A DNA stretch of 64,000 nt from Escherichia coli. Its GTDB lineage: Bacteria; Pseudomonadota; Gammaproteobacteria; Enterobacterales; Enterobacteriaceae. The notes beneath the pieces are model-generated. The model saw nothing but the letters and a program-made list of their open reading frames with translations, was not told the DNA's origin and did not search any database. Below, piece after piece: positions 58,139 through 63,999 of this stretch; the first letter of the stretch is position 1; each line of letters starts with the position of its first letter. A program made the position numbers and the translations under genes. Location: NCBI RefSeq assembly GCF_001677475.2, contig NZ_CP015229.1, one strand, 5' to 3'.

Positions 58139-59281
58139 TTAAATTTGCTTTTCATACAATCGGTAACGCTTGTACGGCTCTGCCCCAATGCGTTCCAGCA
58201 TGTTATTCATGCCTGTATTGGTTTCGAGGATCCATGACATCTCCAGCGCATCGATCTTCCGGCGGGCAAACGGATCGCGTAAGGCTTCAATCAATAACAG
58301 CGCAATCACCGGGCCGATGCGGCTGAACTGATACTCGTCCCGCACGCCCATCAGCGGCACTCGCGCAGTTCGCACACCGCTGACTTTCAAACGCCACAGC
58401 AATTTTGCCCAGCCGAAGGGAAAGAGCGATCCGTTCAGATCGGCAATCGCCTCGTTGATGTTTGGCAAGCCGACAATAAACGCGCAGGGTGCAGAATCAA
58501 TCTCAGCGATGTAGATCATATCGTCCGGCACCAGGTATTTAAGCTGATCGCCCATGGTCGCGAATTCATGTTCGGTAAACGGCACAAATCCCCAGTTGTG
58601 CTGCCAGCCAGAGTTGAAAATCTCACGCAGGATCTGCATCTCTTCGGCAAACCGCTGACGATTGATGCAGCGAATGGTCACCTTTTTGCGCACCTGATCC
58701 ATCAGTTTTTTTAGCGCCGGAGAGAAAGTGAGATCGGTTCGCTGCATCCACCACGCCAGTAAATCAATGCCTTTGTGATAACCCAGTTGTTCAATATGCG
58801 CGGCATACCACGGTTTGCCGTGTGGCATCATCGCACAGGGTGGTGTGTCAAAACCTTCAATCAGTAATCCGCTTTCCTGATTGATATTCAGGCTGAAAGG
58901 CCCGCTGATCTTACTTGCACCTTGTGACTTCAACCACGCTTCCGCTGCGCCAAACAACGCGGCAAAAACCTGCGGCTCATCAATGGCGTCAATCATGCCG
59001 AAATGACCGGTATCTTCGCCGTAACACTCGCGGTGTAAGGTATCGATTTGCGCGGTAATACGCCCAACTATCTGCCCCGCTTTTTTTGCCACCCACGCCT
59101 GCCAGATGATATGGTCCGTCCCCGGATTCTTCGCAGACAAATGCTCGCTGCGTTCAATGAATAAAGGGGGTATCCAGTTTGGATCATCGGGATAAAGTGA
59201 TGACGGAAAAGCGATAAATGCCTTAAGGTCATTTTTATTAATTACTTTTTCAATTTTGATCATCAGCAGATCGCATTCCAT
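58139..59281 (-). CDS. yghO: YghO-type GNAT-fold acyltransferase-like protein
   Basis: 380 aa; position after glcC as for yghO; acyltransferase-like fold inferred from family memory, not from a motif I can point to. Confidence 0.55.
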   Translation of the reverse strand: MECDLLMIKIEKVINKNDLKAFIAFPSSLYPDDPNWIPPLFIERSEHLSAKNPGTDHIIWQAWVAKKAGQIVGRITAQIDTLHRECYGEDTGHFGMIDAIDEPQVFAALFGAAEAWLKSQGASKISGPFSLNINQESGLLIEGFDTPPCAMMPHGKPWYAAHIEQLGYHKGIDLLAWWMQRTDLTFSPALKKLMDQVRKKVTIRCINRQRFAEEMQILREIFNSGWQHNWGFVPFTEHEFATMGDQLKYLVPDDMIYIAEIDSAPCAFIVGLPNINEAIADLNGSLFPFGWAKLLWRLKVSGVRTARVPLMGVRDEYQFSRIGPVIALLLIEALRDPFARRKIDALEMSWILETNTGMNNMLERIGAEPYKRYRLYEKQI

Positions 59282-59652
59282 AGTTCTGTGGGTAACAAAT
59301 AATTAACGGTGAAAAACAGGTTGCAACAGCAACGAACGGCATCTTAATAATCAACCCAATGAATACAAACGACGAATAAATAGTATTTATTAATGATTAC
59401 GATAAGGTCAGAGACTACACAGAAGCGCCACAATGCCTTTTGTCGATTTAAGGCGACCGGACAAGGCTTCTTCTTAATATATTCATAAATTAAATATCAT
59501 TCACAATAAAAACAAAAAAACTCAAACTCATTATTTAAATCAATGTTCATTTTCACACTGATGAAAATACTATCTCATTTATCTTTTATGCCTATATAAT
59601 CCACCGCATTATTGTCATTTTATTTTTGATATCCAATTTTTTCGTGGTGTAT

Positions 59653-61377
59653 ATGTCTAATAAAATCTTTACGCATTCCCTACCTATGCGCTATGCCGAT
59701 TTTCCAACGCTGGTTGATGCTTTGGACTACGCCGCTCTGAGTAGCGCCGGAATGAATTTTTATGACAGACGTTGCCAACTTGAACATCAACTGGAATATC
59801 AGACGTTAAAAACGCGCGCCAAAGCTGGTGCGAAGCGGTTGTTATCGCTGAACCTGAAAAAAGGCGATCGCGTGGCGCTGATTGCCGAAACGAGTAGCGG
59901 GTTTGTAGAGGCTTTTTTTGCCTGTCAGTATGCCGGCTTAGTCGCCGTCCCGTTGGCGATTCCAATGGGCGTCGGTCAGCGGGATTCCTGGAGCGCCAAA
60001 CTCCAGGGTTTACTGGCAAGTTGCCAGCCCGCAGCCATTATCACTGGTGATGAGTGGTTGCCACTGGTCAATGCCGCGACGCATAACAACAACCCCGAAT
60101 TACATGTTTTAAGCCACGCCTGGTTTAAGGCATTACCGGAAGCCGATGTTGCGCTCCAGCGTCCAGTTCCGAACGATATCGCCTACCTCCAGTACACCTC
60201 CGGCAGCACCCGTTTTCCCCGTGGCGTCATTATCACCCATCGCGAAGTGATGGCTAATCTACGTGCTATAAGCCACGATGGCATAAAATTACGCCCTGGC
60301 GACCGCTGCGTCTCCTGGCTGCCTTTCTACCATGATATGGGACTGGTCGGCTTTCTCCTGACCCCCGTCGCCACGCAGCTTTCAGTAGATTATTTGCGCA
60401 CTCAGGATTTTGCCATGCGTCCTCTGCAATGGCTTAAATTGATCAGTAAAAATCGCGGCACCGTTTCCGTTGCGCCGCCGTTTGGCTATGAATTGTGCCA
60501 GCGCCGCGTGAATGAAAAAGATCTCGCTGAACTGGATCTTTCCTGCTGGCGCGTCGCTGGTATTGGTGCAGAACCCATCTCCGCAGAACAACTCCATCAA
60601 TTCGCTGAATGTTTCCGTCAGGTCAACTTTGACGATAAAACTTTCATGCCGTGCTACGGACTGGCAGAAAATGCGCTGGCTGTCAGCTTCTCTGATGAAG
60701 CTTCCGGGGTTGTGGTTAACGAAGTGGATCGCGACATCCTCGAATATCAGGGCAAAGCCGTCACGCCGGATGCTGAAACACGCGCCGTATCGACTTTCGT
60801 CAACTGCGGTAAAGCGTTGCCGGAACATGGCATTGAAATCCGCAATGAAGCAGGTATACCTGTCGCGGAACGTGTGGTAGGCCATATTTGCATCTCCGGC
60901 CCTAGCCTGATGAGCGGTTACTTTGGCGACCAGATTTCACAAGACGAGATTGCCGCGACGGGCTGGTTAGACACCGGCGACCTCGGTTATCTGCTGGACG
61001 GTTATCTGTATGTCACCGGACGCATTAAAGATCTGATTATTATTCGTGGCCGTAATATCTGGCCGCAGGATATTGAATATATTGCGGAACAGGAACCGGA
61101 AATTCATTCTGGCGATGCGATTGCTTTTGTTACCGCCCAGGAAAAAATCATTTTGCAGATCCAGTGTCGGATCAGCGATGAAGAACGTCGCGGGCAGCTT
61201 ATCCACGCGCTGGCAGCACGGATCCAAAGCGAATTTGGCGTGACCGCGGCTATCGATCTGTTGCCGCCCCACAGTATTCCCCGAACGTCCTCCGGCAAGC
61301 CTGCCCGTGCGGAAGCGAAAAAACGTTATCAGAAGGCTTATGCTGCAAGCCTTCATGTGCAGGAATCCCTGGCATGA
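59653..61377 (+). CDS. Fatty acyl-AMP ligase / acyl-ACP synthetase-like adenylating enzyme
   Basis: AMP-binding core YTSGSTRFPRGV and TGDLGY motif; about 574 aa; first gene of a 4-gene coupled cassette. Confidence 0.75.
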   Translation: MSNKIFTHSLPMRYADFPTLVDALDYAALSSAGMNFYDRRCQLEHQLEYQTLKTRAKAGAKRLLSLNLKKGDRVALIAETSSGFVEAFFACQYAGLVAVPLAIPMGVGQRDSWSAKLQGLLASCQPAAIITGDEWLPLVNAATHNNNPELHVLSHAWFKALPEADVALQRPVPNDIAYLQYTSGSTRFPRGVIITHREVMANLRAISHDGIKLRPGDRCVSWLPFYHDMGLVGFLLTPVATQLSVDYLRTQDFAMRPLQWLKLISKNRGTVSVAPPFGYELCQRRVNEKDLAELDLSCWRVAGIGAEPISAEQLHQFAECFRQVNFDDKTFMPCYGLAENALAVSFSDEASGVVVNEVDRDILEYQGKAVTPDAETRAVSTFVNCGKALPEHGIEIRNEAGIPVAERVVGHICISGPSLMSGYFGDQISQDEIAATGWLDTGDLGYLLDGYLYVTGRIKDLIIIRGRNIWPQDIEYIAEQEPEIHSGDAIAFVTAQEKIILQIQCRISDEERRGQLIHALAARIQSEFGVTAAIDLLPPHSIPRTSSGKPARAEAKKRYQKAYAASLHVQESLA

Positions 61378-63740: not shown

Positions 63741-63774
63741 TGTGAGCCCGCTGTGGTGTTGCGCCACGGCGGGT

Positions 63775-63999
63775 TTAATGTTGTCTGTCATACCAATACA
63801 CCAGGCTCAACGCCACCAGCACAAACGCTATCGGTAAACCGAGCGCGGTAACAGGTGCGCTCAACGCAAATAACATTCCCAAATTGACCATGATTTGATA
63901 GCTGATCCAGGTGAGTAAGCCAACGATGACGCCTACAGCGAGACGGCTACCCATCCCTGGCGAGCGCGGGGCGCTAAAGGTAAACGGTACAGCCAGCAA
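63775..63999 (-). CDS. C-terminal part of an inner-membrane protein (possibly yghQ-like transporter); 5' end beyond window
   Basis: Hydrophobic helices AVGVIVGLLTWISYQIMVNLGMLFALSAPVTALGLPIAFVLVALSLVYWY; convergent with the alpha-oxoamine synthase gene. Confidence 0.4.
   Translation of the reverse strand: MLAVPFTFSAPRSPGMGSRLAVGVIVGLLTWISYQIMVNLGMLFALSAPVTALGLPIAFVLVALSLVYWYDRQH

Follow-up and report, generated by a model that had tools for sequence, protein, structure and literature searches.

Does Escherichia coli carry the means to make a sphingolipid? To our knowledge this organism, the textbook subject of lipid biology, is usually said to be without sphingolipids, a picture that comes from strain K-12. 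The question is raised by a group of five genes (yghO, aasR, cerR, acpR, and spt) near the end of a 64,000-nt stretch of E. coli DNA (GCF_001677475.2, contig NZ_CP015229.1), which we refer to in its entirety as the window. A preliminary description of this DNA had likened the genes to those by which Caulobacter makes ceramide, and the parallel was borne out by profile hidden Markov models (HMMs), structure, homology and gene neighborhood, together with an earlier publication (PMC9386255). We conclude, with a probability of about 0.9, that the locus represents, in E. coli, the ceramide (sphingolipid) synthesis cluster of alpha-, beta- and gammaproteobacteria. The genes themselves are not new, the cluster having already been described, annotated and partly tested in strain BL21(DE3); the remaining interest of the locus lies in its native lipid, the head group, the conditions of expression and the physiology.

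The five genes and their predicted products

A six-frame listing of open reading frames (ORFs) found all five genes intact at the coordinates previously given for them. yghO (58139-59281, minus strand, 380 residues) is transcribed divergently from the other four, which lie on the plus strand: aasR (59653-61377, 574 residues from its ATG), cerR, also called epi (61374-62288, 304 residues), acpR (62320-62568, 82 residues), and spt (62568-63740, 390 residues). The raw sequence has an ATGA stop-start overlap between aasR and cerR at 61374-61377 and a TAATG overlap between acpR and spt at 62566-62570, and the motifs quoted in the preliminary description (YTSGSTRFPRGV, GATGFIG, YANSK, DLGLESIK, and GTFSKSL) were all found in the translations; its coordinates, strands and overlaps were confirmed as well. 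Several starts can be proposed for aasR: the longest ORF begins at TTG 59626, the NCBI annotation pipeline (PGAP) uses ATG 59653 in strain LR-31, and the start in BL21(DE3) lies 36 bases further downstream. We favor ATG 59653 because the alignment to the family model begins at residue 6 of its product.

Spt is predicted to be a pyridoxal 5'-phosphate (PLP)-dependent alpha-oxoamine synthase with serine palmitoyltransferase (SPT) activity. It scored 599.7 bits (E-value 1.9e-180) against the NCBIfam SPT equivalog NF047599, which has a cutoff of 500, and this was the sole subfamily model that it passed, all other subfamilies being below cutoff; the top-scoring SPT model for the E. coli protein was the one named "beta-proteobacterial", not the alpha one, and the scores point to a type found in beta- and gammaproteobacteria. 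The nearest solved structures were likewise bacterial SPTs (2jg2, 374 bits), with Kbl at ~200 bits, BioF at ~177 bits, and CqsA at ~125 bits. Residues His137, Asp210, His213, Lys244, and Arg366, which match His159, Asp231, His234, Lys265, and Arg390, respectively, of the Sphingomonas paucimobilis enzyme, were conserved in 40 of 40 aligned homologs. The earlier SPT-like call thus agrees with the equivalog score, the nearest structures and the catalytic residues alike. Compared with the soluble SPTs of S. paucimobilis and S. wittichii (2jg2 and 2x8u), Spt has the same fold family and keeps the PLP lysine, the His/Asp/His residues and the equivalent of Arg390, whereas it has Leu354 (63627-63629) where the Sphingomonas enzyme has Arg378, a residue that we take to contact the serine carboxylate. 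We considered and rejected a change of substrate from this replacement, the position being occupied by Leu, Val, Ile, or Phe in each of the 40 aligned YghO-linked homologs, Caulobacter included; because it is hydrophobic in every linked homolog examined, Arg378 does not mark a defining position.

The remaining plus-strand genes would supply the acyl donor and a reductase, and the calls made earlier for them (an adenylating fatty-acid enzyme, an extended short-chain dehydrogenase/reductase [SDR], and an acyl carrier protein [ACP]) held up against HMM scores, motifs and homology to Caulobacter. AasR, a predicted fatty acyl-AMP ligase and dedicated acyl-AcpR synthetase, scored 871.7 bits against the fatty acyl-AMP ligase model NF006624 (cutoff 600, E-value 1.9e-262). 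AcpR, the putative specialized ACP, matched ACP families over residues 22-60, and Ser39 (in DLGLES) aligned with the serine of DLQVDS in Caulobacter sp. AcpR; Ser39 is therefore predicted as the phosphopantetheine attachment site, and the modifiable serine that such a carrier protein needs is in place. CerR, the putative NAD(P)-dependent 3-keto reductase, has GATGFIG at residues 9-15 and YANSK, i.e., the GxxGxxG and YxxxK motifs of an extended SDR. Its matches in the family scan were to epimerases and reductases, all of them below cutoff, and it shares 35% identity (E-value 2e-43) with the ORF that lies directly upstream of acpR-spt, the cerR slot, in a Caulobacter sp. locus (L078). The Rossmann motif starts at about residue 8-9 in the E. 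coli and Caulobacter sp. proteins alike, and because the NAD-binding motif of the former begins at residue 9 there is no room in it for a classical (Sec or Tat) signal peptide; Caulobacter CerR is reported to be periplasmic (PMC11087976).

YghO presented a different problem, in that it had no match in Pfam or NCBIfam. It belongs to a large family of ~380-residue proteins (6419 representatives at E-values of 0.001 or less in an exhaustive representative search), in which a word-indexed search reached close enterobacterial relatives only, Caulobacter being reached by the exhaustive search and a genome scan. AlphaFold2, run on an alignment of 63 diverse family members, gave a very confident model (pLDDT 95.9), whose best PDB fold matches were tandem GNAT proteins, namely 2wpw (a clavulanate-pathway protein), 5kf1 (a glucosamine N-acetyltransferase), 7q3a (MAB_4324), and 1ozp (the mycothiol synthase MshD), with probability 1.0, E-values down to 2e-15, and TM scores of 0.56-0.63. 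The term "GNAT-like" in the preliminary description is thus right, but at the level of the fold only, as seen by structure prediction and fold search. YghO is also 45% identical over its full length (E-value 8e-110) to the ORF beside lptG2, the cerS slot, in the same Caulobacter sp. locus. The predicted fold and this homology make YghO a candidate bacterial ceramide synthase (bCerS, CerS, or aca), that is, an N-acyltransferase.

Relation to BL21(DE3) and to Caulobacter

The same five genes were mapped in BL21(DE3) by Padilla-Gómez et al. in 2022 as yghO/aca (ECD_02850, given as the counterpart of CC_1154), aasR (ECD_02851), epi (ECD_02852), acpR (ECD_02853), and spt (ECD_02854), with the statement that C. 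crescentus and E. coli BL21 alone have all five dihydroceramide genes in one cluster (PMC9386255). ECD_02850-02854 is the same locus as that in the window, with identical gene order, glcC on one side and lptG2/lptF2 followed by yghQRST on the other, and the differences are allelic only, amounting to 0-15 amino-acid changes per protein (identities of 98.9% for YghO, 97.4% for AasR, 97.4% for CerR, 100% for AcpR, and 99.5% for Spt). RefSeq names the plus-strand products "fatty acyl-AMP ligase", "NAD-dependent epimerase/dehydratase family protein", "acyl carrier protein", and "spt: serine palmitoyltransferase". A 2026 preprint draws a sphingolipid operon of E. coli UTI89, with lptF2/lptG2 paralogs, beside those of Caulobacter and Sphingomonas (10.64898/2026.04.12.717747).

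The preliminary description stated that no product of the E. coli locus had been characterized, which no longer holds, as co-expressed E. coli AasR, AcpR, and SPT of BL21(DE3) form 3-oxo-sphinganine in vivo (PMC9386255). In the same study E. coli AcpR was found to carry 4'-phosphopantetheine, with beta-[3H]alanine incorporated in vivo; AasR acylated its own AcpR and not that of Caulobacter; and E. coli SPT formed 3-oxo-sphinganine from L-serine and palmitoyl-AcpR, preferring palmitoyl-AcpR in vitro over palmitoyl-CoA or acyl-AcpP (PMC9386255). The proteobacterial SPTs tested there preferred acyl-AcpR to acyl-CoA, which we count as a difference from the soluble Sphingomonas SPTs, and "sphinganine-like" and "ceramide-like" spots were tentatively attributed to chromosomal ECD_02852 and ECD_02850 (PMC9386255).

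From these data we propose a pathway in which AasR would convert a long-chain fatty acid to acyl-AMP and load it onto the phosphopantetheine arm of AcpR, after which Spt would condense acyl-AcpR with L-serine to 3-oxo-sphinganine with loss of CO2. For the window these steps are supported by analogy, the experiments having used BL21(DE3) proteins 97.4-100% identical to its own. YghO would then carry out N-acylation and CerR reduction of the 3-keto group, and LptF2/LptG2, probably powered by the housekeeping LptB, may draw the lipid from the inner membrane toward the outer membrane.

The order of the two middle steps is where published models differ. The preliminary description had placed reduction before N-acylation, which is one of two published orders, the eukaryote-like one, and is the model of Olea-Ozuna et al. 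(PMC11087976). Work from the Klein laboratory places Caulobacter Spt and bCerS in the cytoplasm and CerR in the periplasm and describes a build-up of oxidized ceramide in a cerR mutant. Because of this localization and build-up (PMC11087976), the order with acylation first is favored. The eukaryotic de novo pathway (SPT, KDSR, and CerS) is alike in joining serine and an acyl thioester to give 3-ketosphinganine, followed by reduction and N-acylation. SPT alone is homologous, however: the bacterial reductase is a soluble SDR and the acyltransferase a tandem GNAT protein, both of unrelated families, the bacterial acyl donor is a dedicated ACP, and acylation may come before reduction instead of after it (PMC11087976).

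At its far end the cluster meets a convergent gene that the preliminary description had called a polytopic membrane protein with a part in export. The membrane protein is real, but it is not a generic exporter; it is specifically a paralog of LptG, lptG2, whose 3' end occupies 63775-64000 on the minus strand before the gene runs past the end of the window, with lptF2 next. In a collinear locus (L001), the full lptG2 scored 304.7 bits against the LptG model TIGR04408 (cutoff 240) and its neighbor 319.8 bits against the LptF model TIGR04407, and in the collinear loci each gene exceeded the cutoff of its model. E. coli also has a housekeeping lptFG pair at another place in its genome. A part in sphingolipid export and an interaction with LptB are shown for Caulobacter only, where LptF2/G2 are reported to form a complex, to bind LptB, and to be deletable only when anionic sphingolipid is absent (10.64898/2026.04.12.717747).

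In C. crescentus the corresponding genes are spt (CCNA_01220/CC_1162), acpR (CC_1163), cerR (CC_1164), aasR (CC_1165), bcerS (CCNA_01212/CC_1154), and lptF2/lptG2 (CC_1156/CC_1155). The likeness extends to all five biosynthetic functions and the LptF/G paralogs, and acpR is immediately upstream of spt in both species. In the Caulobacter sp. locus the order is cerR, acpR, spt, intervening genes, lptF2, lptG2, and the YghO homolog, which is the order published for C. crescentus (CC_1164, 1163, 1162 ... 1156, 1155, 1154; PMC11324152), and identities to the window proteins were 45% (YghO), 52% (Spt), 40% (AcpR), and 35% (CerR). A 35-kb E. coli region compared with this locus contained homologs of cerR, acpR, spt, lptF2, lptG2, and cerS only; lptC2 (CC_1168), which lies outside the compared stretch, is reported to be restricted to Caulobacter (10.64898/2026.04.12.717747). 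The two species differ in that the five E. coli genes form one compact divergent unit and that E. coli has a YtfJ-family gene, a gene for a 274-residue protein, yghQ, and yghR/S/T next door.

The linkage was also seen well beyond these two species. A genome scan with the YghO alignment gave 80 loci, drawn from Enterobacterales, Pseudomonas, and Nitrosomonas as well as numerous alphaproteobacteria and other bacteria, and tblastn searches with the E. coli proteins found, within 10 kb of the YghO homolog, Spt and AasR in 40 of 80 loci each and CerR and AcpR in 38 of 80 each, many of the loci lacking partner genes being short contigs. LptG2-like and LptF2-like genes were near the YghO homolog in 42 and 37 of the 80, respectively. 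In eleven Nitrosomonas, Nitrosospira, and Nitrosovibrio loci (L023, L024, L027, L028, L031, L032, L034, L039, L041, L047, and L059) the YghO/bCerS homolog is followed directly by LptF2/LptG2, with spt, acpR, cerR, and aasR elsewhere. For Nitrosomonas, the separation of spt from the YghO homolog agrees with the published map (PMC9386255). The pairing of acyltransferase and transporter is the tighter linkage, because it is kept in these ammonia-oxidizing betaproteobacteria where the spt set lies elsewhere.

Weighing the ceramide reading

Of the 5426 complete E. coli genomes, 4592 contained the region by megablast and 4134 (76%) contained spt, nearly always at one chromosomal site. The deletion that removed the cassette from K-12 is associated with IS5: in MG1655, such an element stands in place of all sequence from the first yghO codons through the 5' part of yghQ. 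Where the genes are kept, dN/dS (Nei-Gojobori; comparisons with BL21, a divergent Escherichia lineage, and Pseudocitrobacter) was 0.03-0.15 for all five, a range that indicates strong purifying selection and genes that are maintained, not decaying; in comparisons with Hafnia, dS was saturated and gave no ratio for two of the genes.

Several points weigh against a ceramide pathway at work in E. coli. No report of a sphingolipid from wild-type E. coli was found in the literature searched, and K-12 shows normal growth although it lacks the cassette. In BL21(DE3) with empty vectors no 3-oxo-sphinganine-like compound was seen under the conditions used (PMC9386255), and because of this the chromosomal cluster seems to be expressed very weakly or not at all in laboratory culture. 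The BL21 "sphinganine-like" and "ceramide-like" spots were assigned by migration in thin-layer chromatography only (PMC9386255). The 35-kb E. coli region had no homolog of the Caulobacter cpg head-group genes (CC_1158-1161 by position; in the Caulobacter sp. locus, the genes from spt to lptF2, including a lipid-kinase-like one). Finally, the roles suggested here for YghO and CerR in E. coli are read from homology and gene linkage, as are export by LptF2/G2 and the nature of the native product.

A rival reading is that the cluster is a cryptic remnant in E. coli, its genes intact and yet never usefully expressed and of no contribution to the cell. K-12 lost the cassette without obvious cost, ~24% of complete genomes are without spt, the empty-vector BL21 cells gave no product (PMC9386255), and the AT-rich region upstream may be of a kind that is often silenced. 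We nevertheless consider a remnant unlikely, given the purifying selection on all five genes, measured within E. coli, against a divergent Escherichia lineage and against other Enterobacterales, and given five intact frames in the window and a cluster kept at one chromosomal position in most genomes. Less probable is that the synthase is of the CqsA type and that the product of the cassette is a quorum-sensing signal, an alpha-hydroxyketone or amino-ketone, and no membrane lipid, the alternative product class named in the preliminary description. CqsA belongs to the same alpha-oxoamine synthase superfamily, and its models and structures match Spt significantly; the CqsA score, however, is 221.5 bits against a cutoff of 428, compared with 599.7 for the SPT equivalog, and the structural comparison likewise excludes it (~125 versus 374 bits). 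Moreover, the near-identical BL21 enzyme takes L-serine and yields 3-oxo-sphinganine (PMC9386255), and linkage to a ceramide synthase homolog and LptF/G paralogs fits a membrane lipid. We can dismiss a second BioF or Kbl, for biotin synthesis or threonine degradation, among unrelated neighbors, as less probable still: these models do match (E-values of 1e-100 and 1e-88), but at scores (333.9 versus a cutoff of 426.45 for bioF and 297.5 versus 460 for Kbl) far under that for SPT, with no biotin or tdh context and with the spt start overlapping the stop of a dedicated ACP gene.

If the locus is taken as a ceramide synthesis cluster, a larger but distinctly tentative idea follows, which we think rather less probable than its negation: that the majority of natural E. 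coli, along with several further Enterobacterales, make a so far undetected ceramide-based outer-membrane lipid under conditions absent from the laboratory. Because the cpg genes are absent from the locus, its head group would be unlike the ceramide phosphoglycerate of Caulobacter, and it might be made or handled by YghR/S/T, the 274-residue protein, the YtfJ-family protein, and YghQ, and exported by LptB-LptF2G2. The usual picture of E. coli lipids comes from K-12, a strain that has deleted a cassette kept by about three-quarters of complete E. coli genomes as an intact, constrained pathway together with a second LptF/G pair. In Caulobacter, sphingolipids change the outer-membrane barrier and the sensitivity to polymyxin, and in Bacteroides they modulate host immunity, and because of such effects a native E. 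coli sphingolipid, if real, would matter for the biology of commensals and pathogens.

Surroundings of the cluster

The genes that follow lptG2-lptF2 lie beyond the window and were read from the collinear locus (L001:15953-21113, collinear with window position 65952 onward), where they are the YtfJ-family gene, the 274-residue ORF, yghQ, and yghR/S/T. The 274-residue protein had no family match, YghQ is MOP-flippase-like, and YghR/S/T gave weak P-loop and dTMP-kinase-like matches with no solved relative. We considered YghR/S/T as homologs of the ceramide kinase CpgB and rejected this, CpgB being of the LCB5/DAG-kinase type and YghR/S/T weakly dTMP-kinase-like. In other Enterobacterales, homologs of these downstream neighbors are found alongside ceramide genes, variously arranged, which suggests, and does not prove, that the YtfJ-family protein, the 274-residue protein, YghQ, and YghR/S/T share a function with the ceramide genes. 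Homologs of yghR/S/T in particular were within 10 kb of ceramide genes in seven of nine other Enterobacterales loci, in varied arrangements, and weak ones (36-38%) were near them in one Pseudomonas locus too. This hints at a place for yghR/S/T in the same system, perhaps in the chemistry of the head group. In K-12, yghR/S/T are retained despite the loss of the ceramide genes.

Within the cluster, the 371-bp region between the divergent yghO and aasR (59282-59652) is AT-rich, with a G+C content of ~31% versus 48-57% in the genes on either side, and we presume that promoters and regulatory sites for the two transcription units lie in it; a scan of it for the sigma-70 promoter consensus did no better than shuffled background. 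Between the convergent spt and lptG2, a scan for terminator-like elements found a G+C-rich hairpin at 63743-63777 (16 pairs, nine of them G-C), likely a terminator for both genes.

Elsewhere in the window, an insertion-sequence cluster at 2217-10101 contains genes for an IS21 transposase and its IstB helper in two copies, one of which is on the minus strand, along with a hybrid ISL3/IS21 fragment and an IS256 transposase. A genomic-island module follows at 19947-31516. It opens with an Rfam match to IS102 RNA (19947-20183), close upstream of which no gap precedes the gene for an Ag43/Cah autotransporter (20127-23048, 1970 bits), continues with an 840-residue ORF that has no family match (23163-25685), and includes a CP4-like block (26325-31516) that is 90-94% identical to a stretch of LR-31 annotated as DUF932, antirestriction, and CbtA/CbeA toxin-antitoxin genes. 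The type II secretion system beta operon is present in full, from yghD/gspM through pppA, at 31612-43414 and is ~95.6% identical to that of LR-31; the group 2 capsule (kps) region upstream of this operon in LR-31 is absent from the window.

From there to the edge of the ceramide cluster (43777-58048), identity to BL21 is only ~94.7%, because the allele of sslE (43512-48100), a lipoprotein metalloprotease gene, is divergent: compared kilobase by kilobase, it is 85-93% identical to BL21 over 44001-48000, and the flanking glc genes are mostly 96-99% identical. We considered whether the low overall value pointed to a non-coli Escherichia and rejected this, since apart from sslE the DNA compared is of the usual E. 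coli kind. The intergenic region between glcA and glcB has a full-length match to the small RNA C0719 (50377-50598, Rfam RF00117, 282.7 bits). At 54001-55000, in glcE/glcF, identity dips to ~94.3-94.8% against BL21, LR-31, and K-12 alike, with adjoining kilobases at 96-99%, and this dip may represent a small recombination patch.

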